Shown here: positions 5,916 through 42,891 of the stretch, piece after piece
Position numbering within the stretch: the first letter of the stretch is position 1
Layout of the letters: every line of letters starts with the position of its first letter
Source of the DNA: Chloroflexota bacterium
GTDB taxonomy: Bacteria > Chloroflexota > Limnocylindria > Limnocylindrales > CSP1-4
Direction: 5' to 3'
NCBI GenBank assembly: GCA_947475545.1
Contig: CANJLL010000001.1
Coordinates: forward strand, 618,157-682,156
Length of the DNA: 64,000 nt
Notes under the pieces: model-generated
The model's database searches: none
Told to the model about the DNA's origin: nothing
The model's input: the letters and a program-made list of their open reading frames with translations, nothing else
Made by a program: the position numbers and the translations under genes

Positions 5916-6404
5916 TCAGCCAGCGGCGCGCCGCACCAAGTCGGCGAGTGTCGCCTCGTCGGCGTCACTCAGGCCGAGCAGCGCGAATGCCGCCGGCCAC
6001 ATCGTTCCGTCGTCGAGCCGCGCGTCCGGCAGGAAGCCGAAGGTGGAGTAGCGAACCTTGAACTTGGACGCCGGCTGGAAGAAGCAGATCACCTTGCCGT
6101 CCCTCGCCCAGGCCGGCATCCCGTAGTAGGTCCGCGGGACCAGGTTGGGTCCCGTCACGGCCACCATCGCGTGGAGACGCTGGGCCATGTCGCGCTCGGG
6201 ACCGGGCATCTCGGCGATCTTGGCCTGGACCTCGGCCTTGCCGGCCGCGCGCTCTTCCTCGGGGCTCAGCTTGGTGCTGCGCTTCCGTTCTCGGGCCGCC
6301 TCCCGCATCGCCGCCCGCTCCTGGTCGGTCCAGGTCTCGCCGCCAGCCGTCTTGCGCGCGCCCTTGGTGGTGCCGGCCATGGTCAGTCCCCTCCTCGGTG
6401 CCAA
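5916..6404 (-). CDS. DUF1801 (YdhG-like) domain protein.
   Basis: PRTYYGMPAWARDGKVICFFQPASKFKVRYSTFGF is the characteristic DUF1801 core. Confidence 0.6.
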   Translation of the reverse strand: MAPRRGLTMAGTTKGARKTAGGETWTDQERAAMREAARERKRSTKLSPEEERAAGKAEVQAKIAEMPGPERDMAQRLHAMVAVTGPNLVPRTYYGMPAWARDGKVICFFQPASKFKVRYSTFGFLPDARLDDGTMWPAAFALLGLSDADEATLADLVRRAAG

Positions 6405-6485
6405 TCTGGGGTCGTTACGAACATCGTAGCCGCGCTTGGGGGCGACGCTTCTCCAGACCTGCTGTGCCGGCGCTCCGGCCGCGAA

Positions 6486-10227: not shown

Positions 10228-11514
10228 CTAGCCGTGCGTGTGCGACGCCTCGGCTCGGGCGATGGTGTCCGCCAGCTCACCCACCGGCACCAGCGTCTGC
10301 GTGGCGGCGCGCAGGTCGCGCAGCGTGACGTTGCCGTCGGCCAGCTCGTCGCCCAGGATCACCGCGAAGTGTGCCCCGTCGCGGACGGCGGCCTCCAACT
10401 GCTTGCCCAGCTTGCGTCGGCCCAGCTCGGCCCGCGCCGCAATCCCCGCCCCCCGCAGGTCCGTGGCGACCCGCAGCCGGCCCACCGTGTCGTCCGGGTC
10501 AGCGCCCACCACCACGGCCACCGGCGCCGGCTCCGCGTCGGACGCCCCGCCCGTCTCCGCGAGCGCCAGGACCAGCCGGTCCAGCCCGATTCCGAAGCCG
10601 ATCCCGGGCGTGGGCCGTCCGCCCAGCAGCTCGATCAGCCCGTCATACCGGCCGCCGCCGCCCAGCGCCTGCTGCTGGCCCTCGCGGCCCGTCTTGTAGA
10701 ACTCGAACGCCGTCCGGGTGTAGTAGTCCAGGCCGCGGACCAGCGATGGCTCCAGCCGGTAGGCCACGCCCAGGGCATCCAGGTGCGCGCGGACGCCCGC
10801 CAGGTGCGCGGCGCACGCGTCACACAGGAACTCGGTGATCCGCGGCGCGGCGGCGTTCAGGGCGGTCATCGCCGGGTCCTTGGAATCCGGCAGGCGCAGC
10901 ACGTTCCGGTCGAGGCGCTCGCGCTCCAGCGGCGGCAGGGCATCAACGTGCCCCCGGTAGTAGTCCGTGAGCGCGGCGATGAACGACGGCCGGCACGCCC
11001 CGTCGCCGATGGAGTTAAGGAGCACCTCCACGCCGTCCAGCCCCGCCTCGCGGTAGAAGCGGAAGCCCAGCTCGATGATCTCCGCGTCGATCGCCGGCCC
11101 GGGATCACCGATCGCCTCCACGTCGAACTGGACGAACTGGCGATAGCGGCCGGCCTGCGGGCGGTCGTACCGGAACATGGGCCCCGTCTGGGTCAGCTTC
11201 ACCGGCTGCGGCCACGTCTGCATCCCGTGCTGGACGTAGGCCCGCATGATCCCGGCGGTGGGCTCGGGGCGGAGCGCCCAGCGCTCCGATTCCTCGGTCC
11301 GTGGCGCCAGCCGGAACAGCTCCTTCTGGACCACGTCGGTGACCTCGCCGATCCCGCGCTCGAACACGTCCGCCAGCTCGAACAGGGGCGTCGTGATCTC
11401 CCGGTAGCCGTAGCGGGCCGCGAGGTCGCGGGCGAGGGCTTCGAGGCGGGCCCAGGTTGGGCGTTCGGCCGGCAGCAGGTCGCGGGTGCCCCGCGGGGCT
11501 CGGTAGGTGGGCAT
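10228..11514 (-). CDS. hisS: Histidyl-tRNA synthetase.
   Basis: Class II motifs (RGTRDLLP, FRYDRPQAGRYRQFVQFDVE, GGGRYDGL) and the C-terminal anticodon-binding domain. Confidence 0.95.
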   Translation of the reverse strand: MPTYRAPRGTRDLLPAERPTWARLEALARDLAARYGYREITTPLFELADVFERGIGEVTDVVQKELFRLAPRTEESERWALRPEPTAGIMRAYVQHGMQTWPQPVKLTQTGPMFRYDRPQAGRYRQFVQFDVEAIGDPGPAIDAEIIELGFRFYREAGLDGVEVLLNSIGDGACRPSFIAALTDYYRGHVDALPPLERERLDRNVLRLPDSKDPAMTALNAAAPRITEFLCDACAAHLAGVRAHLDALGVAYRLEPSLVRGLDYYTRTAFEFYKTGREGQQQALGGGGRYDGLIELLGGRPTPGIGFGIGLDRLVLALAETGGASDAEPAPVAVVVGADPDDTVGRLRVATDLRGAGIAARAELGRRKLGKQLEAAVRDGAHFAVILGDELADGNVTLRDLRAATQTLVPVGELADTIARAEASHTHG

Positions 11515-11596
11515 GGCCCAAGTCTACGAGACAAGGCCGGCGGCGGGCCGCCCGGAGACTGCGCCGCCCCCGCCGCAGGCCGGCGCCTGAGCCGCC

Positions 11597-13846
11597 CTAC
11601 CCCAGGTCGCGCGAGACCGAGCGCACGTCGCGCAGCTGCTCGATGCGCCGGAAGACGCGGGCCAGCTGGCTGACGGAGGCCACCTGGATGGTGGCGCGGA
11701 CCACCGCGACCCGGTCGGGGTTGACCGTGACGCTCGCGGCGACGATGTTGACCTTGGCCTCCGCGACGATCTGGCTGATGTCGGACAGCAGGCCAGTTCG
11801 GTCGTAGGCCTCGACGCGGATCGCGATCGGATACGAATCGGTGGGCGCTCCCTCCCACTCCACGTCGATCAGGCGGCCCACCTCGCGCTCGTTGACCACC
11901 GTCGCGCAGCTCTGCTGATGCACGGTGACCCCCTTGCCGCGGGTGATGAAGCCGATGATGGGGTCGCCCGGGATGGGGTGGCAGCACTTGGCGAAGCGGG
12001 TCAGGAGATCCCCTACCCCCTTGACCCGGACCCCGCCCGTCCGCGGCGGTGTCGGCGGGGCGATGGTGGGCAGGACGAACTGCGCGTCGTCCACGACCCC
12101 CAGCTTCATCACCACCTGCTGGGCGCTGGGCGCGCCGTACCCGACGGCGGCGTAGAAGTCGTCCATGGTCTCGAAGCTGAACTGCTTGGCCACCTCGGCC
12201 AGACGCTCCGGCCCAACAGCCGCGGCCGACGTCCGCGCGAGGCGGCGGAGCTCGCGTTCCAGCGCCTCCCGCCCGTGGACGATGTTCTCGTCGCGGTCCT
12301 TGCGCTTGAACCACTGCCGGATCTTCTCCCGGGCATGGGACGTCCGGACCAGCGTCATCCAGTCGCGCGATGGGCCATGCTCGCCCTTGGTGGTCACGAT
12401 CTCGACGATGTCGCCGTTCTTGAGCCGGTAGTCCAGCGGGACGAGCCGGTTGTTGACCTTGGCCCCGATGGTCCGGTGGCCGACGTCGGTGTGGACCCGG
12501 TAGGCGAAGTCCAGCGGGGTCGCGCCGGCCGGCAGGTCCTTGATGTCGCCCTTGGGCGTGAAGACGAACACCTGGTCCTGGAAGATGTCGAGCTTGATCC
12601 CCTCGACAAAGTCCGTGGCATCCGTCGCATCGCGCTGCCAGTCCATCAGCTGGCGGAGCCAGGCAAGTTTCGCGTCGTACGCCCGATCGGCCTTGGTGCC
12701 GTCCTTGTAGCGCCAGTGCGCGGCGATGCCCACCTCGCTGACCTGGTGCATCTGCTGGGTGCGGATCTGGATCTCCAGCGGCTTGCCCTCGTACGCGATC
12801 ACCGCCGTGTGGAGCGACTGGTAGAGGTTGTTCTTGGGGACGGCGATGTAGTCGTCGAACTGGCCGGGGATGGGCCGCCAGAGCGCGTGGACGATGCCCA
12901 GGGTGGCGTAGCAGTCGCGCACGTCGTCGACCAGCACGCGGATCGCGTAGACGTCGTAGATGTCCTCGAAGTCGGCCTGCTTCCGCTGCATCTTCTTGTA
13001 GATGCTGTAGATGTGCTTGGGTCGCCCGCCAAGGTCCGCCTTGACGCCGGCAGCCTCCAGCCTGGGCCGGAGCTCCTCGATGGCACGGTCGATGAAGCCC
13101 TCCCGGTTCTTGCGCCGGGTGTCGAGGAGGCGGGCGAGCTCGCGGAAGTGCTCGGGCTCCAGCGTCTTGAACGAGAGGTCTTCCAGCTCCCACTTGATCT
13201 GCCAGATCCCAAGCCGCTCGGCAAGCGGGGCGTAGATCTCGATTGTCTGGCGGGCGATGCGCTGCTGCTTCTCCAGCGGGAGGGCGGTCAGCGTCCGCAT
13301 GTTGTGGAGCCGGTCGGCGAGCTTGACGAGCACGACGCGGATGTCGTCGGCCATCGCCAGGAGCATCTTCCGGATGTTCTCGGCCTGCCGCTGCTCGTGG
13401 CTGTGCGTGCTGAACTTGGACAGCTTGGTGACGCCGTCGACGAGGTGGGCCACCTCCGCGCCAAAGCGTTCCTCGACCTCCGCCAGCGAGACTTCGGTGT
13501 CCTCCGGGACGTCGTGGAGCAGCGCGGCCTGGATGGCGATTGGGTCAATCCCCAGCTCCGCGAGGATCCAGGACGTCGCGATCGGGTGCAGCACGTACGG
13601 CTCGCCGGAGGCGCGGCGCTGACCGTCGTGGGCGACCACCGCCAGGTCGAATGCCCGCTCGATGGGGCCGAGGTCCGCCTGCGGGTAGTGGTCCGCGATC
13701 AGCGCGAGGAGGTCTCGACGCAGCAATGGCAGGTCTGCCAGCGTGCCGACACCCGGCGCGCCAAAGGCCGTGACGGGCGCCATGGGCCGATTGCCACGCG
13801 GTCGGGGCGCGGCCGTCGTCTCGGGCTTGAGTGGCTCGACGGTCAT
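11597..13846 (-). CDS. relA: Bifunctional (p)ppGpp synthetase/hydrolase Rel/SpoT.
   Basis: HD hydrolase domain (HLVDGVTKL...), synthetase domain (RPKHIYSIYKKM...DIYAIRVLV), TGS and ACT domains. 749 aa. Confidence 0.95.
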   Translation of the reverse strand: MTVEPLKPETTAAPRPRGNRPMAPVTAFGAPGVGTLADLPLLRRDLLALIADHYPQADLGPIERAFDLAVVAHDGQRRASGEPYVLHPIATSWILAELGIDPIAIQAALLHDVPEDTEVSLAEVEERFGAEVAHLVDGVTKLSKFSTHSHEQRQAENIRKMLLAMADDIRVVLVKLADRLHNMRTLTALPLEKQQRIARQTIEIYAPLAERLGIWQIKWELEDLSFKTLEPEHFRELARLLDTRRKNREGFIDRAIEELRPRLEAAGVKADLGGRPKHIYSIYKKMQRKQADFEDIYDVYAIRVLVDDVRDCYATLGIVHALWRPIPGQFDDYIAVPKNNLYQSLHTAVIAYEGKPLEIQIRTQQMHQVSEVGIAAHWRYKDGTKADRAYDAKLAWLRQLMDWQRDATDATDFVEGIKLDIFQDQVFVFTPKGDIKDLPAGATPLDFAYRVHTDVGHRTIGAKVNNRLVPLDYRLKNGDIVEIVTTKGEHGPSRDWMTLVRTSHAREKIRQWFKRKDRDENIVHGREALERELRRLARTSAAAVGPERLAEVAKQFSFETMDDFYAAVGYGAPSAQQVVMKLGVVDDAQFVLPTIAPPTPPRTGGVRVKGVGDLLTRFAKCCHPIPGDPIIGFITRGKGVTVHQQSCATVVNEREVGRLIDVEWEGAPTDSYPIAIRVEAYDRTGLLSDISQIVAEAKVNIVAASVTVNPDRVAVVRATIQVASVSQLARVFRRIEQLRDVRSVSRDLG

Positions 13847-13889
13847 GGTTTCCGCAGTCTACCAGCGGCCAACGGGCGCTCCGCCCGGA

Positions 13890-15527
13890 TCACCGGCCGT
13901 CGCCGTAGCCCAGCAATGCGAGCGCCCGCCTGGCTTCCGCGACCTCGTCCCACGGCCGGGCGCCCGTCGGGCCGATGATCGAGGTCTCGTGACCCTTCCC
14001 GGCGAGCAGCAGCACGTCGCCCGGACGCGCCCGCTCCATGGCCGCCTGGATCGCCTCACCGCGATCCGCGATGAGCAGGAGATCGGTCCCGCGGCGTCGT
14101 CCCACCCGCTCCGCGCCCGCCGCGATCTGGTCGAGGATGGCCTCACGGTCCTCGGTGCGGGGATCCTCGTCGGTGACCACGACCAGCCGGCAGCGCTCGC
14201 CAGCGACGCGGCCCATCATCGGCCGCTTGGCCGTGTCGCGCTCCCCCGCCGACCCGAAGACGGCGATGACGCCGCCACCGCTCGCGGCAGCCAGCGGGCC
14301 GAGCAGGTCCAGCGCGGCCGTCAACGCAGCCGGGGTGTGCGCGTAGTCGACGATCACGCCGAACGGCTGGCCTGCCTCGACGCGCTGCATCCGCCCCGGA
14401 ACGGCTTCGACCGACTCCAGGCCGGCCCGGATCGCCGCGGGGTCCAGCGAGAGGGCCTCGCCCAGCGCGACCACGGCGAGGGCGTTGTGGGCATTGAATC
14501 GGCCGGCCAGGCGGAGGTCCAGCGTGCCAGCGCCGCCGGGGGCCTCGAAGCGCACGCGCAGGCGGCGCCGGTCCTCCTCGATCGCGATCGCCCGCACATC
14601 GGCGGCGACATCGGTGCCGTACGTGAGGACGCGGGCGCCAGCCAGGCGGGCCGCCCCGATGAACGCGGGGGCCGATGGGTCGTCGAGGTTCACGATGCCT
14701 GATCGGGGCCAGCCGGGCGTCGGTTTGGCGGGGCTCGCCGAGCCCACGGCCAGGCGCTCGAAGAGGGACCGCTTGGCCGCGAGGTAGGCGTCGAAGGTCC
14801 GGTGGAACTCGAGGTGTTCATGCGTCAGGTTGGTCAGGATCGCCACGTCGTAGGCGACCTCGGCGACGCGCTCCTGGGCCAGGCCGTGGGAGGTGGTCTC
14901 GACCACCGCTGCCGCGTCACCGGCGTCGACCATGGCCCGCAACATCGCCTGGACGGTGGGCGCCTCGGGGGTGGTCGCGTGGACGTCGTTGGCGGCCCGA
15001 ACCCGGCCAATCTGCGTGTCCACGGTGCCGATCAGGCCGGTTGCGATGCCGGCGGCCTCGAGCGCCGCGACCGCGAGGAACGACGTCGTGGTCTTGCCGT
15101 CGGTGCCGGTGATCCCTACAACGCCCAGGCTCCGCGAGGGATCGCCATACCACCACGCCGCTGCCGTCGCCAGGGCGCGACGGGTGCTCCGGACCAGGAC
15201 CTGCGGCAGGCTCACGCCCAGCACCACCCGCTCCACCAGGGCGGCAGCAGCGCCCGCCGCGGCGGCCCTGGCCACGTAGTCGTGGCCGTCGGCGTGTTCG
15301 CCGGGGACGGCAATGAACAGGTGGCCCGGCCTGACCGCGCGCGAATCGAACGCCAACCCGGCGATCGCGATGCCGAGACGGGACCCGCTCGAGGCCGCAC
15401 CGGCCACGTGTCCGCCGCCCGCCGCCGCCACCTGGTCCCCGGCACGAAGGCGCTCCACCAGGTCGAGCAACGGGCGCGGCGACCCGGGCTCCACGGCGGC
15501 CAGCAGCTCCTCGATCGCTCGGCTCAT
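13890..15527 (-). CDS. murE: UDP-N-acetylmuramoyl-L-alanyl-D-glutamate–diamino acid ligase (MurE).
   Basis: Mur ligase motifs GITGTDGKTTT, ATTPEAPTVQ, DEDPR and GKGHE. The C-terminus overlaps femX in an ATGA. Confidence 0.85.
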   Translation of the reverse strand: MSRAIEELLAAVEPGSPRPLLDLVERLRAGDQVAAAGGGHVAGAASSGSRLGIAIAGLAFDSRAVRPGHLFIAVPGEHADGHDYVARAAAAGAAAALVERVVLGVSLPQVLVRSTRRALATAAAWWYGDPSRSLGVVGITGTDGKTTTSFLAVAALEAAGIATGLIGTVDTQIGRVRAANDVHATTPEAPTVQAMLRAMVDAGDAAAVVETTSHGLAQERVAEVAYDVAILTNLTHEHLEFHRTFDAYLAAKRSLFERLAVGSASPAKPTPGWPRSGIVNLDDPSAPAFIGAARLAGARVLTYGTDVAADVRAIAIEEDRRRLRVRFEAPGGAGTLDLRLAGRFNAHNALAVVALGEALSLDPAAIRAGLESVEAVPGRMQRVEAGQPFGVIVDYAHTPAALTAALDLLGPLAAASGGGVIAVFGSAGERDTAKRPMMGRVAGERCRLVVVTDEDPRTEDREAILDQIAAGAERVGRRRGTDLLLIADRGEAIQAAMERARPGDVLLLAGKGHETSIIGPTGARPWDEVAEARRALALLGYGDGR

Positions 15528-16627
15528 CGCCCTGGTCCCGCGACCCTGGCCGCCACCCGCACCAGCGACAGGTGGCGCGGGCGAAGCACCCGCTCGTGCG
15601 CCCCTACCTGCTCGACGAACCGCGCCCCAAACGACAGCTTGTGCTGGTAGAGGCCGAACATCGGGTCCCCGGGCCGCGGCTCGTGGCGCGCGCCGGCGAC
15701 ATCCACGCCACCCAGGTCCATCTCCGCGCGCCCCTCGCGGGCGGCCAGCTGGATCGCGCGCCAGCGGAGCAGGTGGAGGACCCCGGGATGGTCGGCGCGC
15801 GCGGCCGCATCGTCGCCGGAGATCGCCGTCGAGAGGCGATCACCCTGGCGATAGAGCAGGAGACCCGCGATCGGGGTCACGCCCCCGGGAGCCCGCGCCT
15901 CCAGGTAGAGCGCCAGGCCGTCGGCATGCGCCGCGCGCAGCCACGCGAGGAATGGCCCGACGGGGCCCAACCCAAAGCCCCGCCGCTCCCCCGTGGCGGC
16001 CACCAGGCCGTGGAATTCGGCGAGGGCCGCCTCGAGGTCGCCGCGTAGGCCGGGCTCGAAGCCGGGTCCCGGGCTGGACCCGTCCTCGACCGCTGTGTCG
16101 AACCGGCGGACCACGATCCCCTCGGCCTCGGCCTGCCGGATCCGCTGCCGCGTCTGCTTCGAGACACCCGCCAGGAGCGCCGCTTCGTCCGCCCCGTCGA
16201 TGGCGAGCGACATCCGGTGCCGGTTGGGCTGGACCTCCTCGGCGGGACGGAAGCCCAGGCGCGCCAGCCGGTCCGCGTAGTCGGACGAGGCCGGGAGCTC
16301 TGCGTCCGTCGTGACGACGTCCAGCCCGCGACTCGCCAGCCAGTCCGTGACCGCCGCGAGGCGTGCGGCAACGTGTTCGGGCGTGTCCCCCGCCGTCACG
16401 GGACCGCGCGACAGGTACGCCTGCCCGCCTCCGAGCAAAGGCCATGGCCGGGTGAGCACGAGGACGGCCCGCCCGTCGGCGCAGACCAGGTGGCGGGCGC
16501 GCCAGCCCGTGGCGGCGCGGTGTCGTGCCCAGGCGCGCGACTGGAAGATCTGGCCGCCGGGGACATCCACCGTCAGCTTGTCCCACGCCGCCAGGTCGGC
16601 GGCGGTCGCCTCGCGCACGGCGGTCAT
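15524..16627 (-). CDS. FemAB-family peptidoglycan interpeptide-bridge aminoacyltransferase, copy 1. The start is trimmed to MTAVREAT.
   Basis: FemAB/FemX family fold signature (QSRAWARHRAATGW...LLYRQGDRLSTAISG...FGLYQHKLSFGA). The track ORF's Arg-rich N-terminal 240 aa overlaps the upstream gene and is rejected. The ATG at 16627..16625 overlaps the upstream stop (ATGA). Confidence 0.75.
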   Translation of the reverse strand: MTAVREATAADLAAWDKLTVDVPGGQIFQSRAWARHRAATGWRARHLVCADGRAVLVLTRPWPLLGGGQAYLSRGPVTAGDTPEHVAARLAAVTDWLASRGLDVVTTDAELPASSDYADRLARLGFRPAEEVQPNRHRMSLAIDGADEAALLAGVSKQTRQRIRQAEAEGIVVRRFDTAVEDGSSPGPGFEPGLRGDLEAALAEFHGLVAATGERRGFGLGPVGPFLAWLRAAHADGLALYLEARAPGGVTPIAGLLLYRQGDRLSTAISGDDAAARADHPGVLHLLRWRAIQLAAREGRAEMDLGGVDVAGARHEPRPGDPMFGLYQHKLSFGARFVEQVGAHERVLRPRHLSLVRVAARVAGPGR

Positions 16628-17835
16628 GCCAGGTCGCCGGCGCGCCCCCCGGGGCCCGCGGCCACTCCGCCGGCATCGTCCGGGGCCACGCCCGCGGGGC
16701 CCCCCGCGCCGGCATCGCCCCGGGTAACGCCCACGGCGCCAGCCGCGCCGGGGCCTCCTTCGGCCGCGACGGCGCCGGCCGCCCGCCGCTCCCGGTCCAT
16801 GCGTCGCCGGCTGAGCCGGACCCTGGCGTCCTGGCCTAGCGCGTAGACCCGTCGGCCGAACGGGTTGAGCACCAGGTCCCAGGCCCCGATGTACTCGACA
16901 TCTCGGCCGCCGAAGCCCGTCTTGAAGTGGGCGATCCCCTCGGTCACCTCGCCCCACATGTCGTAGCTGGTGCCGCCGGCCTCGCGGGACGTGCGGATGG
17001 CCTCCCACTTGAGCAGGTAGTTGGCGCGCGATTCGGCGCCGGCCGCCGTCATCCCGCCGTACGGCTCCACGACCCGCGGGCCGCAGCGGACGAGGAAGAG
17101 GGTGGCCTGGCCGCGGCCGTCCGGGGTCTGCGCGAAGAGCAGGCGGGCATTCCCCGCCGGCGCGAAGGCCTCCCAGATGTCGCGGTACGCCGACAGCGCG
17201 CGGATCTGGAAGCCGGCCCGCAGGGCCGTCTCCTGGTAGATGGCATAGAACTCCGGGAGCCGCTCCGCGCCCGCGTCGACCATCGCCAGGCCGGACGCCC
17301 GCGCCTTGTTGACATACTGGCGCCACTTCTTGCGCAGGTCGGCCCACAGCGCGGCCTCATCGGGTCGCAGGTCCACCAGCCTGGTCGAGCGAGGCTGAAT
17401 CGCGGGCGCCGGGCGCCAGCCCGCGTCGCGCAGCGCCGCCCGGAAGGCGCCGTCGGCGTCGTGCGGACCGTCCGCCTCGATCTCCGGGTCGATCCGAAGG
17501 TGCGAGATGGGGCCCGCGATGCGCGGGAGCTGGGCGCGAACGGCGGCCGTGAAGGCGGCAACGCCGGCCGGATCCCAGGAGCTGGCGACGGGGCCGCGGG
17601 GGGCATAGGCAAAGCCCCACGGCAGGGGCCTCGGCCGCGTGACCAGGACCTGCATGCCCATCCGGCCACCAGGGACATCGGCCAGGATGCGGGCCGACCG
17701 CCAGCCGTTCACCGCCTTGACGGTCGCCCAGCCGGCGAACTGGAGGTACGAACCCAGCTCGGTGGACGCGACGAAGTCGTCCCACCGCTCGGGATCGGCG
17801 GCGATCGTGGAGGCCGACGCCTCGGCGGCTGGCAT
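16624..17835 (-). CDS. FemAB-family peptidoglycan interpeptide-bridge aminoacyltransferase, copy 2, with a Gly/Ala-rich C-terminal tail. The start is trimmed to MPAAEASAS.
   Basis: FemAB signatures (QFAGWATVKAVNGWRSARIL...LLKWEAIRTSREAGGTSYDMWG...FKTGFGG). The start codon overlaps the murJ stop (TGATG). Confidence 0.75.
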   Translation of the reverse strand: MPAAEASASTIAADPERWDDFVASTELGSYLQFAGWATVKAVNGWRSARILADVPGGRMGMQVLVTRPRPLPWGFAYAPRGPVASSWDPAGVAAFTAAVRAQLPRIAGPISHLRIDPEIEADGPHDADGAFRAALRDAGWRPAPAIQPRSTRLVDLRPDEAALWADLRKKWRQYVNKARASGLAMVDAGAERLPEFYAIYQETALRAGFQIRALSAYRDIWEAFAPAGNARLLFAQTPDGRGQATLFLVRCGPRVVEPYGGMTAAGAESRANYLLKWEAIRTSREAGGTSYDMWGEVTEGIAHFKTGFGGRDVEYIGAWDLVLNPFGRRVYALGQDARVRLSRRRMDRERRAAGAVAAEGGPGAAGAVGVTRGDAGAGGPAGVAPDDAGGVAAGPGGRAGDLA

Positions 17836-19406
17836 CACGACCGCGCGCGGCGCCGGAGGAGGTCGGTCATGACCGCGACGATAGTTGGCAGCTCGCGGAT
17901 GCGCAATGCGGCCGCCAGGGCGAGGTAGGCCGCGCCGCCCGCAGCCCCGGCCAGGCCGGCCTGGAGCAGGAGCACCGGCCGGGCAGGATCTGGGCCAACG
18001 ACGCCTGCCAGCCCGCCGTTCGCCGCCCAGCTGACGGCGGCCGCCATGACGCTGGCGAGGCTCGCCGCGACCGTCATGCGGAGGACCGGGAGCAGGTCCA
18101 GTTCGGCGTGACGCCGGTCCAGGATCACGAACAGCACGATCGCCTCGATCCATGCCGCGATCGCAATCGCGAGCGCCAGTCCCGCCAGGCCCAGGGGCCC
18201 GACCAGCACCACGGCCAGGCTGGAGTTGATGGCCACCGCCAGGATCGCCGCCGCGACCGGCGTCCGGGTGTCCTGGCCGGCGTAGAACGCCCGGGCCAGC
18301 AGGGCGATCGCCGAGTGAGCGGCGAGGCCCACCAGGAAACAGAGCAGCGCATCCGAGGTCAGCGCGATGGCCCGGTCGTCGAACCGGCCGTAGTCGAAGA
18401 GGAGCGTGACCAGCTCCGTGCGCAGGACCATGCCGATCCCCGTGATCGGCAGCATCACGAAGAGGAGCACCCGGAGCGACCGCGTCAGGAGCTCCAGGAA
18501 GTCCCCCACTGCGCCGGTCGCGAGGTCGCGCGCCATCGACGGGAACACGACCGTTCCCAGCGGGACGCCGATGACGCCGATCGGGATCTGCAGGAGCGTG
18601 AAGGCGAAGTTGAACGCGGAGATGGCTCCCGCCCCCAGCCCGGAGGCCAGCGTCGTGGCCACAACGAACGTGATCTGGCTGGCACCCATTCCGATCGCCC
18701 GCGGCACCATCAGGGCCATTGCCCGACGCGCGGCTGGGTCGGCCGCGTCCAGCGCCGGGCGGTAGCGGAACCCCAGCCGTGCGATCGGCGGGAGCTGGAT
18801 CAGCAGGTTGAGCGCAGATCCGGCGACGACACCGGCCGCCAGGCCGGTCACCCCCATGGCCGGGGCCAGGATGACCGCGCCGCCGATGATCGCGAGGTTG
18901 TACAGGACCGGCGCCAACGCTGCGGCTGCGAACCTGCCCTCGGCGTTGAGCACGCTGGTGGCCACCGCACCCAGCGCCAGGAGAATGGGGCTGGCCAGCA
19001 TGAGCCGCGTCAGACCCACCGTCTGCTCGACCTGCGCGCGGCTGAACCCGGGCGTCATCGCGTCGATCAACTGGGGCGCCAGGACCGCGAGGATGGCCGC
19101 CAGGACCGCGAAGGCGACCAGCATCAGGTTGGTGACGGTGCTCACCACGCGCCAGGCCCGATCACGCTCCCCGGAGGCCAGCAGGCCGGCGACGATGGGG
19201 ATCAGCGCGGAGCCGAGCGCGCCGGCGGCCACCAGCTGGAAGATGAGGTCCGGGATCCGGAAGGCGGCGAAGAAGGTATCCAGCTCGCCCGCCGCGCCGA
19301 ACGTGCCGCCGATGACAACCAGCCGGAGCCAGCCCAGCGCCCGTGACAACAGGAAGGCGGCGGTGACGATCAGGCCCGCCCGGGCAAGCGTTCGGCTGCG
19401 GGTCAC
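17835..19406 (-). CDS. murJ: Lipid II flippase MurJ (MviN). The GTG start overlaps the xerC stop.
   Basis: A 14-TM MOP-superfamily protein with the conserved N-terminus LSRALGWLRLVVIGGTFGAAGELDTFFAAFRIPDL. Confidence 0.85.
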   Translation of the reverse strand: MTRSRTLARAGLIVTAAFLLSRALGWLRLVVIGGTFGAAGELDTFFAAFRIPDLIFQLVAAGALGSALIPIVAGLLASGERDRAWRVVSTVTNLMLVAFAVLAAILAVLAPQLIDAMTPGFSRAQVEQTVGLTRLMLASPILLALGAVATSVLNAEGRFAAAALAPVLYNLAIIGGAVILAPAMGVTGLAAGVVAGSALNLLIQLPPIARLGFRYRPALDAADPAARRAMALMVPRAIGMGASQITFVVATTLASGLGAGAISAFNFAFTLLQIPIGVIGVPLGTVVFPSMARDLATGAVGDFLELLTRSLRVLLFVMLPITGIGMVLRTELVTLLFDYGRFDDRAIALTSDALLCFLVGLAAHSAIALLARAFYAGQDTRTPVAAAILAVAINSSLAVVLVGPLGLAGLALAIAIAAWIEAIVLFVILDRRHAELDLLPVLRMTVAASLASVMAAAVSWAANGGLAGVVGPDPARPVLLLQAGLAGAAGGAAYLALAAALRIRELPTIVAVMTDLLRRRARS

Positions 19407-20425
19407 GATCGGCCCGCCGTGGCGTCCGGGGCCGGGCCTCGGCCCAGCGCAGCCGTGCGGGCCCGCGGGTGAGCGGCGCGATAGGCATCCTGCAGGCGCG
19501 CCGGCGAGACGTGGGTGTAGATCTGCGTCGTGGCGAGATTCTCGTGGCCCAGCAGCTCCTGGACCACCCGCAGGTCCGCGCCACCGTCGAGGAGGTGCGT
19601 GGCGAAAGAGTGGCGCAGCGTGTGCGGCGAGACGCCCTCCGGCAGGCCCGCAAGGCGGCACAGGCGGTCCAGTCGGAAGCGGAGCCCCCGGACACCGAGC
19701 GGGGCGCCGAGGTGGTTCAGGAAGACCTCCGTTGGCTCAGCCGTGGCCCCCCCGGCCAATGCCAGCAGGACGGGACGACCGTCGTCGAGGTACTCGCGGA
19801 GGGCGCGCCGGGCTGGCCGGCCCAACAGCCCGATCCGCTCCTTCCGGCCCTTGCCCACCACCCGCAGCTCGCCGCGACGCAGGTCCAGCCAACCCAGCTG
19901 GGCCGCCGCCAGCTCGCTGATGCGCAGGCCCGCGGCGTATGCCACTTCGACCAGCGCCCGGTCCCGCAGCGCGATCGCCCTGAGGCGCTCGGGACGACGG
20001 CCAGGGCGAGCCGGGTCCACGATGGCGGCAGCCGCCAGGTCATCCTCCACGGCGGCCAGGAGCCGCTCGACCTGTTCGACCTCCAGGACGCGCGGCAGGC
20101 GGGCCGGGAGACGAGGCGTCGCGATGGCGCTCCACGGGTTGGCCTCGGCGAGTCCGGCCCGGCCGGCGAAGCGGTAGAAGGATCGAACGGCGGCGAGCCG
20201 CTGGGCGACGGTGGTGCGCGCGCCCGTCTCGCCCAGGTGGGCCAGGTAGTCCCGCAGGTCCACGCGAGGGGGACGGCGCCAGTCCAGGCCGCGCTCGTTC
20301 AGCCAGGCGAGATAGGCCCTGACGGCGGTCGCATAGGCCCGCTGCGTGTGAGGCGACGTGTCGCGCGCGGCGAGAATCTCAAGGAACCGCGCGAGCGCGG
20401 CGTTGGCGTCCGACGCCGGGCTCAC
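19403..20425 (-). CDS. xerC: Tyrosine site-specific recombinase of XerC/XerD type. The GTG start overlaps the topA stop.
   Basis: An N-terminal SAM-like core-binding domain (TQRAYATAVRAYLAWL) and a catalytic domain carrying the R..HxxR..Y motif (HTLRHSFATHLL...LLGHENLATTQIYTHV). Confidence 0.8.
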   Translation of the reverse strand: MSPASDANAALARFLEILAARDTSPHTQRAYATAVRAYLAWLNERGLDWRRPPRVDLRDYLAHLGETGARTTVAQRLAAVRSFYRFAGRAGLAEANPWSAIATPRLPARLPRVLEVEQVERLLAAVEDDLAAAAIVDPARPGRRPERLRAIALRDRALVEVAYAAGLRISELAAAQLGWLDLRRGELRVVGKGRKERIGLLGRPARRALREYLDDGRPVLLALAGGATAEPTEVFLNHLGAPLGVRGLRFRLDRLCRLAGLPEGVSPHTLRHSFATHLLDGGADLRVVQELLGHENLATTQIYTHVSPARLQDAYRAAHPRARTAALGRGPAPDATAGRS

Positions 20426-22851
20426 GCCTCCGGAGCGCTCTCTTTGGGTGACGTGCGCCGGGCCGCCGGCCGCGCCGCGCTCCGGGTTGCCGTGGTCCGC
20501 GGGCGCGTGGCTCGGGCTGCGCCGGCAGCCGCCGTGCCGGCGCGCCGCGCGGCCCGCGGCGCGGCCAGGATTGATGGGTTGGGCTCGCCGCCGGGCAGCC
20601 GCGTGCCAACCCACTCGTCGTCAGGCGGCGGCGTGATCGCGGCGCCGCACTTCAGGCAGATGGGATCCTCGCCCTTGCGCGCCACGAGGCCGTCGTCCAC
20701 GTCGTGGACTGCGCCGAGCGGCTCGAAGTTGGAGGTGTAGTCGCACTTGGGATACGCCGAGCATCCCCAGAAGACATTGCCGGTCCGCCGGGCGCGACGC
20801 GCGACCAGGTGGCCGTCACCGTTCCTCGGGCAGGACACGACGAACGGGAGCTGGGGCGGCGGCGGGGGGCCATCCTTCTTGATGAACTTGCACTCCGGGT
20901 AGCGCGAGCAGCCAACGAACGGGCCGAACCGGCCTCGCTTGGACGTCAGCACGCCCTCGCCGCACTCGGGGCACGCCTCGCCGGTCCCGGGCAACGCGGG
21001 CTGCTCCTCGCCCGGCAGCGGACGCGACTCCTTGTGCTCGGGGAAGAGCGAGCAGGCGAGGAAGCGGCCGTTCCGGCCCAGCCGGATGACCATGGGGTGG
21101 CCCTCCGAGCAGACCTCGTCCGTCTCCTCGGTCGATCGATGGGTTGACTTCTTCTTCTCGGCGACACGCTCCGCGAGCGGATCGTAGAAGGCGCGGAGGA
21201 ATGGCACCCAGGGGCGCTCGCCGCCCGCGACCTCGTCGAGCTCCTCCTCCATCCGGGCCGTGAAGGCCAGGTCGACGTACTCGCCGAAGTGCTCGACCAG
21301 CCAGCCCGTGACGATGACGCCGATCTCCTCCGGCCGGAGGCGGCGCTCCTCGACCCGGACGTAGCCGCGATCGAGGATCGTGGAGATGGTGGCGGCATAC
21401 GTGGATGGCCGGCCGATCCCGCGCTCCTCGAGCGCCTTGATCAGCGTCGCCTCCGTGTAGCGCGGCGGCGGCTCGGTGAAGTGCTGGGTGGGCGTGACCG
21501 CCAGGACATCGGTGGCATCGCCCGCGACCAGCGCCGGCAGGCGACCCTCCTCGTCCTCGGCCGCCTCGTCGTCGCGCCCTTCCGTGTAGACGCGGCTGAA
21601 GCCGTCGAACAGCGTCTTGGAGGCGGTGGCTCGCAGGAGATAGCGGCCCGCGTCCAGCTCCGCGGTGTTGGTCTCCAGCTCCTTGGGGGCCATCTGCGAC
21701 GCGATGGCGCGCTGCCAGATCAGGCGATACAGGCGCAACTCATCAGTCTTGAGGGCGCCGACCAGCGAATCCGGGTCCCGTTCGAAGCTGGTGGGCCGGA
21801 CCGATTCGTGGGCCTCCTGGGCGCCCTTGGCCTTGGTCTTGAAGACCCGCCCCTTGGGCATCGTGTAGGGAGCGCCGTAGCGCCGCGCGATGACGTCACG
21901 GGCTTCCCCCATGGCCACCGCGGCCATCGCGGTGGAGTCCGTTCGCATGTAGGTGATCAGGCCGACCTGGCCGTCCGGCGTCTCGACGCCCTCGTACAGC
22001 CGCTGCGCGACGGACATGGTCCGCTTGGGGCTGAAGCCCAGCTTGCGACTGGCCTCCTGCTGCAGGGTGGACGTGGTGAAGGGCGCCGCCGGGTTCCGCT
22101 TGCTGGTCCGCGTGCCGATGGAGGCCACGACCGGACGGATGCCGGCGAGGGCCTCGGCGTGCACAGCGGCCGTCTCACCGTCGGACACGTCGACGGCGGC
22201 GCCGTCGATTCGCACGACCTCAGCGTCGAACTGGTCGCCGGCCGCCGTGGCGAGGCGCGCGGCGAGGCTCCAGTACTCGCGGGCCGTGAACGCATCCACC
22301 TCGCGCTCGCGCTCCACCACGAGGCGCACGGCGACGGACTGGACCCGCCCCGCGGAGAGGCCGCTTCGGACCTTGCGCGACAGGAGCGGGCTGAGGGTGT
22401 AGCCGACGAGCCGGTCTACGATCCGCCGCGCCTGCTGGGCGTCCACCAGGTTCATGTCGATCTGGCGTGGGTGGGCGAAGGCCTCGCGGATGGCGCCGGC
22501 CGTGATCTCGCTGAAGGTGACCCGCTGCGTCTTGGCCGCCGGCACGTTGGCCGCCTCGGCGACGTGCCAGGCGATGGCCTCGCCTTCACGGTCAAGGTCT
22601 GTCGCGAGGATGACGATATCGGCGCTGCGCGCAGCCTTGGAGATGGCGTCGACCTGCTTGCGTCGGTCGTCCGAGACGACGTAGTCGGGCGCGAAGTCGT
22701 TGTCCACGTCCACGCCGAACTTCCCCTTGCCGGGGTTCTCGGGCAGGTCACGGACGTGGCCATATGAGGCCAGGACACGGTAGTCGTCGCCGAGGTAGCG
22801 CTCGATCGTCCGCGCCTTGGCCGGCGACTCGACGATCACCAGGTGCTTCGG
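20422..22851 (-). CDS. topA: DNA topoisomerase I with C-terminal tandem Zn-ribbon domains and a basic tail. The start is trimmed to MPKHLVIVESPAKA.
   Basis: A Toprim domain (IVESPAKARTIERYLG...LATDLDREGEAIAWH), the catalytic Tyr region, and C-terminal CxxC...CxxC repeats. Confidence 0.95.
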   Translation of the reverse strand, partial: PKHLVIVESPAKARTIERYLGDDYRVLASYGHVRDLPENPGKGKFGVDVDNDFAPDYVVSDDRRKQVDAISKAARSADIVILATDLDREGEAIAWHVAEAANVPAAKTQRVTFSEITAGAIREAFAHPRQIDMNLVDAQQARRIVDRLVGYTLSPLLSRKVRSGLSAGRVQSVAVRLVVEREREVDAFTAREYWSLAARLATAAGDQFDAEVVRIDGAAVDVSDGETAAVHAEALAGIRPVVASIGTRTSKRNPAAPFTTSTLQQEASRKLGFSPKRTMSVAQRLYEGVETPDGQVGLITYMRTDSTAMAAVAMGEARDVIARRYGAPYTMPKGRVFKTKAKGAQEAHESVRPTSFERDPDSLVGALKTDELRLYRLIWQRAIASQMAPKELETNTAELDAGRYLLRATASKTLFDGFSRVYTEGRDDEAAEDEEGRLPALVAGDATDVLAVTPTQHFTEPPPRYTEATLIKALEERGIGRPSTYAATISTILDRGYVRVEERRLRPEEIGVIVTGWLVEHFGEYVDLAFTARMEEELDEVAGGERPWVPFLRAFYDPLAERVAEKKKSTHRSTEETDEVCSEGHPMVIRLGRNGRFLACSLFPEHKESRPLPGEEQPALPGTGEACPECGEGVLTSKRGRFGPFVGCSRYPECKFIKKDGPPPPPQLPFVVSCPRNGDGHLVARRARRTGNVFWGCSAYPKCDYTSNFEPLGAVHDVDDGLVARKGEDPICLKCGAAITPPPDDEWVGTRLPGGEPNPSILAAPRAARRAGTAAAGAARATRPRTTATRSAARPAARRTSPKESAPEA

Positions 22852-22987
22852 CATTTCGGGCCGGAGTGTAGCACCGCCTCCTTCGTCCGCCCTTATCCGG
22901 ACGTGGAGTCCGCCCGGCGGCGGCGCCCTCGCGCGCACCCGCGCCCAGGCGCGGGGGAACGGCGATCGGCCGGCCGGCGCCGCCCGC

Positions 22988-23344
22988 TCAGACGTCCCGG
23001 ACGCGGCGGAGCAGCTCCTCGTTGATCTCCAGCTCCGCCTCGGGCTCGGGCTCGGGCTGCCGTGGCGCGGCCTTGCGACCGCCCCCACGCGCCGCGGGCT
23101 TCTCCTGGCGCCCGGCTGAGAGCGCCGCGGCGCCTTCCGAATCCCGGTGGACCTCGATGAACCGAATCAGCGTGTACGGGAAGTAGAAGATGGATTCCGC
23201 GTCGTCAATCCAGATGGGCCGCTTGCCATTCAGCTGCCGCAGGTTGGTACAGACCAGGATCGAATCCCCCGGCGTCGGACGATCAAGGATGTCGGCCAGC
23301 AAGGGCTGCTCGTTGACGATGTGCAGGACGGCGTCGCGGATCAC
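22988..23344 (-). CDS. Hypothetical conserved small protein of 118 aa.
   Basis: A clean ORF between topA and the CAP gene with protein-like composition (LVCTNLRQLNGKRPIWIDDAESIFYFPYTLIRFIEV). No family recognised. Confidence 0.4.
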   Translation of the reverse strand: MIRDAVLHIVNEQPLLADILDRPTPGDSILVCTNLRQLNGKRPIWIDDAESIFYFPYTLIRFIEVHRDSEGAAALSAGRQEKPAARGGGRKAAPRQPEPEPEAELEINEELLRRVRDV

Positions 23345-23388
23345 GGGCAGGGCGCCTCAGCGGTCTTGGGTCGATGGGCCAGCATGGC

Positions 23389-25029
23389 TCAGAGCGGATG
23401 GTAGAAGTCGATGACCAGCCTGACACGGCCGGCCGTGACCCAGACGGCCAGGCCCACCCGGTCGTACTTGGGATTCATCATGTTGACGTAGTGGCCGCCG
23501 CCGGTCGACCGCTCGCTCTGGAAGAACAGGTGCGTGTTGAGCATCGACCAGTACGGGTCGACGCCGTTCTGGCAGCCCAGGTTCTCGGCCCAGACATAGC
23601 TCGTGTAGCCCGCTGCGGCCAGCCGGTTGCCGGGGTTGCCGTTGATGAAGTGGCTGCACAGGTCGTTGTCCGACAGGTACCTGGCGTATGGCCGGCTCAC
23701 GGTCGACGAGATCCCGCCGTCGATCCAGAGCGGCGCCGTGGCGTTGCTGCCGCCGCCGGCACAACTCCCGTCGCCCTGGACCCAGCCGCCGGTCCGCGTG
23801 CAGTTCATCAGCGTGAGGTAATACGCCTCGACCGCGGCCCAGGCTCCCGCCCCGACCGCGCCGCCGCCCGTCCCCGGAGGCGGCGTCGGCGCCTTCGTGG
23901 CCGGGTTGGCGATGGTCGTGAACGTGCCAGAGACCGCCGAGCCCAGCGCCACGCCGGCCTTCGACGCGGCGTCGGGCCCCACGGTCATCACCACGGCCTG
24001 GCCGTAGCCGAAGGCGCTGGCGGGCTGGAAGACCAGCACGGTGTCGCCTTCGGCAAAGCTGACCTTGCCCGACACTGGCGCATCACCCGCGGTCACCAGC
24101 CAGCCGGCCGCGGTCGACGCCTGGTCCATCGCCTCGGTGAACCGGACCGAGAGCGCCTGGACGAGCGCGACGTCCTTCGTGCCCGTCTGGGGACGGAAGC
24201 GGACGACGCCCGGCCGGTCGGCCGTCTGCACGACGAGTGGCGCCTCCAGGGAGACGGCCCCGTTGTCGGCATCCCGCGCGCCCGGGCCCAGGTCGAACGT
24301 ATACGACGTGTTGGGGACGAGCGGGTCGTCCGGGGTGAACCGGTAATGCACCTGGCCGTCCGCGCCGTCCTCGCGTCGGAGGCTGCCACTCACCGGCGGG
24401 TCACTGGTCATGTGGACTGTCCGATCGTCGACCGGGCGGTCGAACTGGACCAGGATGTCGGTGCCCGGTGCCACCTTCTTCCCGAGCAGGGTCCCGGCCG
24501 AGAGCGTGGCACGCGTCGCGGGCCTGGTCTGGAAGGTGGCCCAGATGGGATCCGCGGTGGGGCGGCCGGATGCCAGCAGGGCGCCAGCCTCGATGGTGAC
24601 CGTGGTCTGTGTGCCAGGCGCCCACGCCTCGCGCGGACGGACGACCAGCTCCGTGCCGTCCGGCGCCCAGGTGAGGTCGACCGGGGTGGGCGGCTCGACG
24701 AAAAGGAGCGCCGCGACGCTGCGCGGGTCCATGGGAGCACCGAAGTGCAGGGTGATCGGCGACACGGGCGAGTCCCCCGTCTCCACGGTCGTGGCCCGCA
24801 CCGGGTCCAGGCGCGGAGTGGAAGCCTGGGTGGTCTCGGCTGGCGACGATCCCCGGGCCGTGCCGTCGTCCCGCGCCGACGCCTGGAGCAGCGCGGCACC
24901 GGCAACCCCGACCAGCGCAGCCAGCGCGACCACCGCGACGCGGAATCCGACCGACCGGCGGAGCCCGACCGCGAGGTAGACGAAGACCACGACCGGGAGC
25001 GCGAGCAGCGCGGTGGCGATCTTTCGCAA
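23389..25029 (-). CDS. Secreted or membrane-anchored protein with Ig-like (BIG-type) repeats and a C-terminal CAP/SCP/PR-1 domain.
   Basis: N-terminal TM/signal sequence, repeated beta-rich segments, and the CAP signature GGHYVNMMNPKYDRVGLAV...LVIDFY at the C-terminus. Confidence 0.65.
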   Translation of the reverse strand: MRKIATALLALPVVVFVYLAVGLRRSVGFRVAVVALAALVGVAGAALLQASARDDGTARGSSPAETTQASTPRLDPVRATTVETGDSPVSPITLHFGAPMDPRSVAALLFVEPPTPVDLTWAPDGTELVVRPREAWAPGTQTTVTIEAGALLASGRPTADPIWATFQTRPATRATLSAGTLLGKKVAPGTDILVQFDRPVDDRTVHMTSDPPVSGSLRREDGADGQVHYRFTPDDPLVPNTSYTFDLGPGARDADNGAVSLEAPLVVQTADRPGVVRFRPQTGTKDVALVQALSVRFTEAMDQASTAAGWLVTAGDAPVSGKVSFAEGDTVLVFQPASAFGYGQAVVMTVGPDAASKAGVALGSAVSGTFTTIANPATKAPTPPPGTGGGAVGAGAWAAVEAYYLTLMNCTRTGGWVQGDGSCAGGGSNATAPLWIDGGISSTVSRPYARYLSDNDLCSHFINGNPGNRLAAAGYTSYVWAENLGCQNGVDPYWSMLNTHLFFQSERSTGGGHYVNMMNPKYDRVGLAVWVTAGRVRLVIDFYHPL

Positions 25030-25159
25030 GCAAGGTCTCCGGGTTGGCGCGCCCTGGAATCGGCAGGGATGGATCTCTGCGACCGGTGGGCGCCCGGACG
25101 TCGGAACGTCACGGTAGCACCGGCCCGTTCAGGCTGGCAACCGAGCGATCTCCACTGGC

Positions 25160-42816: not shown

Positions 42817-42891
42817 TGGTAGCAGGGACAGGATTCGAACCTGTGACCTAGCGATTATGAGCCGCTTGCTCTGCCGCTGAGCTACCCTGCC
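42817..42891 (-). tRNA. tRNA-Met (anticodon CAU) with encoded CCA. It has elongator-type features (G1·U72 pair; no 3×GC anticodon stem).
   Basis: The reverse complement folds as a cloverleaf: acceptor GGCAGGG/CCCTGCT, D stem GCTC/GAGC, anticodon stem AGCGG/TCGCT with loop CTCATAA, T stem ACAGG/CCTGT with loop TTCGAAT, then discriminator A and CCA. Confidence 0.85.

Follow-up and report, generated by a model that had tools for sequence, protein, structure and literature searches.

What do two adjacent FemAB-type genes contribute to a cell that keeps them between the genes for a lipid II flippase (murJ) and a peptidoglycan ligase (murE), and what is to be made of the long tail, rich in glycine and alanine, in which one of their products ends? 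These genes lie in a 64,000-nucleotide stretch of a Chloroflexota genome (GenBank assembly GCA_947475545.1, contig CANJLL010000001.1, positions 618,157 to 682,156), which we call the window. A sequence-only reading of the window, made without database searches, had taken the two genes for FemAB/FemX-type transferases that draw on aminoacyl transfer RNAs (aminoacyl-tRNAs), and had predicted from them a branched peptidoglycan with an interpeptide bridge of two or more residues, built sequentially. We name the genes fem2 and fem1, in the order of their transcription. Having set their sequences, modelled structures and neighbourhood against those of known enzymes and related genomes, we consider it probable that the two transferases build the interpeptide-bridge side branch of a lysine- or ornithine-type (Lys/Orn-type) precursor, fem2 acting first and fem1 second, and that the tail is a spacer. 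The span originally given for the pair, 15524-17835, proved exact, and the two genes within it are as follows.

Positions 17835..16624, minus strand: fem2, a FemX-like aminoacyl-tRNA-dependent peptidoglycan branch transferase of 403 amino acids (the second copy of the sequence-only reading), with a folded core at residues ~6-357
Positions 16627..15524, minus strand: fem1, a second, more divergent FemX-like transferase of 367 amino acids (the first copy of that reading)

FemX-type sequence, fold and active site

Both genes were recognised by the Pfam FemAB model (PF02388, gathering score 24 bits), fem2 at 101 bits (E-value 8e-29) and fem1 at 57 bits (2e-15), in agreement with the family to which they had originally been assigned. 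They had also been described as divergent, and so they are, the two proteins being 31% identical over ~360 residues (E 7e-23). Searched against the PDB as a single sequence, fem2 matched FemX of Staphylococcus aureus (6snr, E 4e-17) and FemX of Weissella viridescens (E 1e-13); with a profile of its orthologs the corresponding values were 2e-34 (6SNR) and 3e-23 (1NE9, 4II9). The ortholog profile of fem1 found the same two enzymes, at E 9e-16 (6snr) and 4e-7, and the bit scores to S. aureus FemX were 123 for fem2 versus 61 for fem1.

AlphaFold2 models, built from alignments of 61 (fem2) and 67 (fem1) homologs, reached a mean confidence (pLDDT) of 86.6 and 94.2, respectively. Each model contains two tandem GNAT-like domains, for which the best Foldseek matches were 6snr, 1ne9, 4ii9 and 1lrz (probability 1.00, E 1e-25 to 1e-17). 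Against the PDB as a whole, the fem2 model was matched best by 6snr, 1ne9 and 4ii9, with a target-normalised TM score of 0.80, and the fem1 model by 6snr and W. viridescens FemX, with scores of 0.77-0.78. Below S. aureus FemX, W. viridescens FemX and FemA, the ranking continued with Sbb17-type aminoacyl-tRNA peptide synthases and then with C-terminal domains of MprF. Pfam, the PDB searches and Foldseek thus all led to FemX, and not to a non-FemAB family of the GNAT fold, the alternative that the sequence-only reading had itself named. The coiled-coil arm of the FemA/FemB subtype is absent from both proteins: their alignments skip residues ~232-297 of 6snr, and the models are without long paired helices at that place. 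Without that arm they belong to the compact W. viridescens FemX type and not to the FemA/FemB type.

We then compared the active sites. The catalytic lysine of W. viridescens FemX is Lys305 (PMC12945691). When fem2 is aligned with 1NE9, its residues K40, R212, Y259, F304 and K305 correspond to K36, R211, Y256, F304 and K305 of that enzyme, and all five are invariant in 66 orthologs. An alignment to characterised FemX enzymes had been suggested as a way of locating the substrate-binding residues, and for fem2 it places K40 and R212 on K36 and R211, which we take from the mutagenesis literature to be important precursor-binding residues. In fem1, K330 aligns with the catalytic lysine and is invariant in 67 sequences; H329 stands for Phe304, and R37 for Lys36. 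The fem1 equivalent of Arg211 is ambiguous, and its candidate, R223, is a valine in the window (residue at ~15959-15961, minus strand). Arginine fills position 223 in >90% of fem1 orthologs, and Val, Leu or Ile is found there in the window, in a relative that is 93% identical (P0122) and in P0125-P0136. Judged by these residues and folds, fem2 and fem1 are most likely catalytically competent transferases of the FemABX family.

Gene order and the predicted wall

Transcription of the region runs, entirely on the minus strand, through topA, a xerC-type gene, murJ, fem2, fem1, murE, relA/spoT and hisS. The genes that flank the pair matched MurJ (PF03023, TIGR01695) and MurE (TIGR01085) models, which places the pair between murJ and murE as originally read. 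Its placement "right after murE" needs correcting: the pair is encoded on the minus strand and adjoins murE on the upstream side. The neighbouring genes and the junctions between them, read from the sequence, are these.

Positions 20350..19403 (start approximate), minus strand: xerC/xerD-type tyrosine recombinase, identified from its translation, at the head of the overlapping chain
Positions 19403..19406, minus strand: GTGA overlap of the xerC stop and the murJ GTG start
Positions 19406..17835, minus strand: murJ, lipid II flippase (PF03023 316 bits, TIGR01695 334 bits)
Position 17835, minus strand: single base shared by the murJ TGA stop and the fem2 ATG, in TGATG
Positions 16624..16627, minus strand: ATGA overlap of the fem2 stop and the fem1 start
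Positions 15524..15527, minus strand: ATGA overlap of the fem1 stop and the murE ATG
Positions 15527..13890, minus strand: murE, ligase for the third residue of the stem peptide (TIGR01085 460 bits)

At each of the four junctions (xerC/murJ, murJ/fem2, fem2/fem1 and fem1/murE) the genes overlap by 1-4 nucleotides. A scan of positions 11000-23500 found no minus-strand terminator-like site, which shows merely that nothing obvious interrupts the operon; it found no promoter-like site either, and the one terminator-like site that it did find, on the plus strand, falls below the shuffle expectation. In view of the successive overlaps and of the lack of a minus-strand terminator-like site in that scan, xerC-murJ-fem2-fem1-murE is predicted to be one translationally coupled chain. 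The overlap of the pair with murJ and murE also lends contextual support to its predicted chemistry, in which residues from aminoacyl-tRNAs would be passed to a peptidoglycan precursor. A long alternative open reading frame upstream of fem1 (15524..17347) was considered as a sign of programmed frameshifting and rejected, such long stop-free frames being expected at 75% guanine plus cytosine (G+C).

The closest genomes to the window are metagenome-assembled genomes of Candidatus Limnocylindria/Limnocylindrales, within the Chloroflexota, a class known from metagenomes and of ~69% G+C (PMC10608941). We fetched 80 Limnocylindria loci, and nearly all of them keep the order xerC-murJ-fem2-fem1-murE-relA; identity to the window is 62-73% for the fem2 orthologs and 48-57% for those of fem1. 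A 4-nucleotide NTGA overlap joins fem2 to fem1 in 52 of the 57 clean loci, where fem1 starts with TTG (35 loci), GTG (12) or ATG (10), and the choice of this start codon sets the last residue of fem2 (D, E or A). A phylogeny of the two copies, which the sequence-only reading had proposed, was made by neighbour joining; in it fem1 forms a deeply branching clade, well separated from fem2 and the other relatives of fem2. Because of this deep, separate branch the tree argues for an old duplication and not a recent one. In several long-read MFD genomes (L003, L020, L013, L046, L062 and L069) the fem1, fem2 or relA frames are broken or frameshifted. These breaks look like assembly errors in G+C-rich runs, and they also give rise to spurious "fusion" representatives, P0379 and P0254 among them.

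The company that the genes keep bears on whether they serve the wall at all. The pair might instead belong to secondary metabolism, as peptide synthases that depend on aminoacyl-tRNA in the manner of Sbb17, PacB, VlmA or DhpH, and the Sbb17/Sba18 structures 9wqw, 9wqx and 9wqy appeared among both the fold and the sequence matches. They rank well below the FemX structures, however, and fem2 and fem1 overlap murJ and murE in a housekeeping region, with no biosynthetic-cluster genes seen nearby and with an arrangement kept across the whole class, so that we regard a role in secondary metabolism as very improbable.

We next turned to MurE, the ligase for the third stem residue. The window MurE reads VVTDEDPR in place of the DNPR of diaminopimelate-adding enzymes, a motif found in all five such enzymes that we aligned (including those of Escherichia coli, 1E8C, and Mycobacterium tuberculosis, 2WTZ). 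DNPR, the mark of a meso-diaminopimelate-adding MurE, is therefore lacking from the window enzyme, and DEDPR recurs in all 65 MurE orthologs that cover the motif as well as at loci L078, L079 and L085. The Asn and Arg of DNPR bind the free carboxylate of diaminopimelate, the Asn by a hydrogen bond, and S. aureus has DNPA (PMC3829189); the MurE of Thermotoga, which has DDPR, puts both L- and D-Lys into the wall (PMC9434261). Since the window MurE is without DNPR, its motif favours a Lys/Orn-type stem, which would offer a free side-chain amine for branching. Ktedonobacter racemifer, a cultured member of the Chloroflexota, has a wall of Orn, Ala, Glu, Ser and Gly, with a Gly/Ser bridge that carries Ser at its N-terminus (PMC3236041). 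Our literature search found nothing specific on the wall chemistry of Limnocylindria or on Fem enzymes in Chloroflexota. Taken with the Fem pair, the MurE motif makes the branched peptidoglycan foreseen by the sequence-only reading a reasonable prediction.

Beyond the chain itself, no third Fem paralog was found within the window. In S. aureus, dedicated non-proteinogenic tRNAs are known; none were found near the fem genes, and the sole tRNA of the window is a tRNA-Met at 42817-42891. The murE, murJ and fem genes sit between the recombinase gene and relA, outside any division and cell wall (dcw) cluster; the open reading frames scanned in positions 1-48900 showed no further mur or fts gene. 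Housekeeping genes (hisS, aspS, relA and topA) make up the neighbourhood, and the xerC-type ortholog at L085 has a Pfam Phage_integrase match. Next to topA, positions 23389-25128 (minus strand) encode a 579-residue protein with the bacterial Ig-like domains Big_5 and Big_10, likely a surface protein. Four further open reading frames, all on the minus strand (831-1928, 2036-2767, 5916-6485 and 22988-23356), have coding-like codon-position G+C and no Pfam match at E<=1e-5.

Fem-domain number and the tail of fem2

The division of this locus into two Fem proteins is not constant. In strains 95% identical to the window, one allele of the fem2 tail contains GGGGG instead of GGGG, which shifts fem2 into the frame of fem1; a 767-residue fem2-fem1 fusion (P0123) is present in at least three assemblies and the unfused 400-residue form (P0124) in at least four. 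The run of five versus four G was mapped at L001:3660-3870 and L081:2520-2730 versus L082 and L084. An exhaustive search with the fem2 core returned many proteins of ~700-770 residues with two Fem domains, and full-length fem2-fem1 fusions form 21 clusters, from Chloroflexota metagenome-assembled genomes. P0246 and P0253 combine an N-terminal half of the fem2 type (49% and 47% identity, respectively) with a C-terminal half of the fem1 type (45% and 38%). The position of the window tail is that of the inter-domain linker in these natural fusions.

The number of Fem domains in the slot that adjoins murE ranges from one to three, depending on the relative. At L078 (1073-3675) and L079 (1906-4532) the order is xerC-fem2-murE, with murJ and fem1 both absent from the locus. 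L085 (5001-8245) reads topA-xerC-murJ-[fem2~fem1 fusion]-[third Fem]-murE-…-relA, its third Fem being a distinct one, 28-30% identical to the other Fem domains, and L086 (1188-4426) reads murJ-[fem2-type]-[fem2'~fem1 fusion]-murE. Three proteins of 512-658 residues (P0459, P0494 and P0505) have both MurJ (PF03023) and FemAB Pfam matches, which either a fusion of murJ with fem2 or an artefactual frameshift at the 1-nucleotide overlap could explain.

Such fusions raise the question of whether the two proteins perform two steps or one. They might form an obligate heterodimer, a single chain in some relatives, in which one subunit is mainly structural or presents the substrate and only one residue is added. 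The 21 clusters of fusions speak for this, as do the 4-nucleotide overlap in 52 of 57 loci, the predominance of the weak TTG start in fem1, and the changes in fem1, which has His for the Phe304 of FemX and, in the window's clade, has lost R223. Against it, invariance in fem1 (59-67 sequences) extends to the catalytic lysine and to many further positions, which argues for selection on an active site; the paralogs of S. aureus (FemX, FemA and FemB), Enterococcus faecalis (BppA1 and BppA2) and Streptococcus pneumoniae (MurM and MurN) each add residues of their own, and the three Fem domains of some relatives fit additive steps better. We therefore judge a one-residue heterodimer unlikely. A second possibility is that the two enzymes act in parallel, adding alternative first residues or serving different acceptors, which would give a mixed or condition-dependent wall. 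Both proteins are indeed nearer to FemX, the first-residue enzyme, than to FemA, and relatives differ in how many Fem domains the locus holds. Co-translation in a fixed ratio, and even fusion in relatives, would nevertheless be odd for alternative enzymes, and the deep, separate clade of fem1 is consistent with a distinct step; we think parallel action quite unlikely.

Two successive steps remain the explanation that we favour. In this scheme fem2 and fem1 would be co-translated with MurJ and MurE and would use aminoacyl-tRNAs as donors for a side branch on the precursor. The first residue would be placed by fem2 on the side-chain amine of the residue at position 3, probably L-Orn or L-Lys, and fem1 would then extend the branch. 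We assign the first step to fem2 because of its higher score to S. aureus FemX and because it stands alone at the L078 and L079 loci; of the two copies it is better conserved and closer to FemX, and in some relatives no other copy is present at the locus. Which acceptor and which donor amino acids are used, in what order the enzymes act and how many residues they add are all inferred, and we know of no reliable sequence rule for the donor specificity of Fem enzymes.

Several points weigh against this scheme. The window MurE passes the NCBIfam model for a "diaminopimelate ligase" (NF001126, 413 bits against a cut-off of 373), its EDPR retains the Arg of DNPR, and the Thermotoga MurE with DDPR can use diaminopimelate in vitro (PMC9434261); diaminopimelate, though disfavoured by the motif, may thus still be the residue that MurE adds. 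With H329 in place and R223 missing, fem1 may differ in activity or in substrate. A one-residue heterodimer would also be compatible with the tight coupling and the fusions, and a branched peptidoglycan in Limnocylindria is itself a prediction.

The tail of fem2 was the second feature that had drawn attention to this locus, and it contains a tandem repeat.

Positions 16627..16764, minus strand: low-complexity C-terminal tail of fem2, residues ~358-403, AEGGPGAAGAVGVTRGDAGAGGPAGVAPDDAGGVAAGPGGRAGDLA, delimited by pLDDT and composition
Positions 16661..16751, no strand assigned: 39-nucleotide tandem repeat inside the tail, 2.4 copies with 79% matches and a 13-codon unit (Tandem Repeats Finder score 112)

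The sequence-only reading had described a Gly/Ala-rich tail of roughly 60 residues. The tail is real and its 46 residues include 16 Gly, 13 Ala, 4 Pro, 4 Val and 4 Asp, but the length was overstated, since a count from RRRMDRERR takes in the last helix; the disordered part comprises ~45 residues. In the fem2 model the protein is folded to residue 357, its last helix (325-357) is basic, and residues 360-403 have pLDDT below 50. Translated in the frame of fem2, the 39-nucleotide repeat gives GAAGAVGVTRGDAGAGGPAGVAPDDAGGV. Compared with a close strain, the terminal stretch of ~53 codons, which begins at residue 351, shows 79% nucleotide and 66% amino-acid identity, with 12 gap columns, versus 94% and 95% for the fem2 core.

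Most fem2 orthologs end 15-20 residues past the last helix, usually in the motif RRRHG[LIV]xGxG[SN]A[AS][AG][FY]Gxx[DE]* (e.g. L019:7000-7062; window equivalent 16624-16800), the core form of which, [AST][AS][ASG][FY], is present in 67 of 76 orthologs, drawn from loci L002-L080. Long tails without an aromatic residue occur only in the window's clade (P0003, P0004, P0124 and others), where composition alone is held in common. The tail had been called unusual, and its long form is indeed confined to this small clade; it amounts, however, to lineage-specific low-complexity growth at the linker position and not to a new functional module. From its modelled disorder and its rapid change we take the tail to be a fast-evolving, slippage-prone and probably disordered extension. 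It is best read as a spacer without a catalytic role, which would have grown in part by duplication of the 13-codon unit. At least some of the genomes that have lost R223 of fem1, among them contigs of 7349 and 11308 bases, have also lost the aromatic tail motif, a single co-occurring change; as a sign of co-evolution it is a weak hint.

Could the long tail simply be an error of assembly or gene calling, past an earlier true stop or a frameshift? The region is 75% G+C and of low complexity, related long-read genomes (L003 and L020) have frameshifts here, and a difference of one G alters the product in close strains. Codon-position G+C in the tail (0.98/0.78/0.83) cannot decide the frame, as Gly and Ala codons dominate. 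We accept the fem2 frame because of the conserved stop/start overlap and because the identical protein occurs in many assemblies: the same 403-residue fem2 is found on 12 public contigs from several sources, and the frame ends exactly in the ATGA overlap, whose 4-nucleotide form is kept in 52 of 57 relatives. The close relatives P0124, P0004 and P0003, moreover, carry tails of 30-57 residues and similar composition. An artefact is thus hardly credible.

A broader view would take the whole murJ-murE stretch as a modular bridge cassette, in which Fem-domain content (one in L078 and L079; two in the window and most relatives; three in L085 and L086; separate or fused) sets the length or composition of the bridge across Limnocylindria. 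Here fem2 and fem1 would form a physical complex with the fem2 tail as a tether, and the change between four and five G would let natural populations alternate between a coupled protein pair and a single bifunctional fusion. We put this forward tentatively and, taken as a whole, think it rather doubtful. The short C-terminal motif of fem2 (…G-S-A-A-A-F/Y-G-x-x-D/E) could be a docking peptide for fem1; its loss falls in the clade that has also lost R223 of fem1.

Significance and comparison with known systems

To summarize, fem2 and fem1 are ordinary members of the known FemABX family, and our findings leave unchanged what is known of how Fem transferases work. Candidatus Limnocylindria is widespread in soil and freshwater. 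For this class the conserved murJ-fem2-fem1-murE order, together with a MurE that lacks DNPR, leads to a testable prediction, namely that the wall is of the Lys/Orn type and its interpeptide bridges are about two residues long. Of modest further interest is the comparison among relatives, in which the Fem cassette keeps its place between murJ and murE while its content varies and is sometimes fused. With Fem-domain counts that vary and with split and fused forms at one fixed locus, the class may offer a natural experiment on the evolution of bridge length and of Fem complexes.

Among characterised enzymes, FemX of S. aureus (FmhB; 6SNR) is the best match to both proteins in sequence and in fold, and the FemX/FemA/FemB set resembles the window pair in that several paralogs build the bridge stepwise. 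The S. aureus Fem enzymes differ in having a helical arm of ~60 residues, which fem2 and fem1 are without. In S. aureus, moreover, femAB forms an operon of its own and fmhB lies elsewhere, not between murJ and murE. With FemX of W. viridescens, a UDP-MurNAc-pentapeptide:L-Ala transferase (1NE9, 4II9), the two proteins share the compact build of two GNAT domains in ~335-360 residues and no coiled-coil insert; identity is only 19-27%, however, and fem2 has in addition a C-terminal helix, long and basic, as well as the tail.

The closest functional analogy is to BppA1/BppA2 of E. faecalis and MurM/MurN of S. pneumoniae, two pairs of paralogs that add two residues, the comparison being one of function. 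In both, the first paralog attaches residue 1 to the side chain of Lys, and residue 2 is added by its partner. To our knowledge neither pair is translationally coupled to murJ or murE, and we know of no description of fused forms. Within the phylum, K. racemifer provides a precedent for an ornithine wall with a multi-residue bridge (PMC3236041), which matches an EDPR MurE accompanied by two Fem genes; it belongs to a different class from Limnocylindria, and the comparison is one of its wall chemistry with a prediction.

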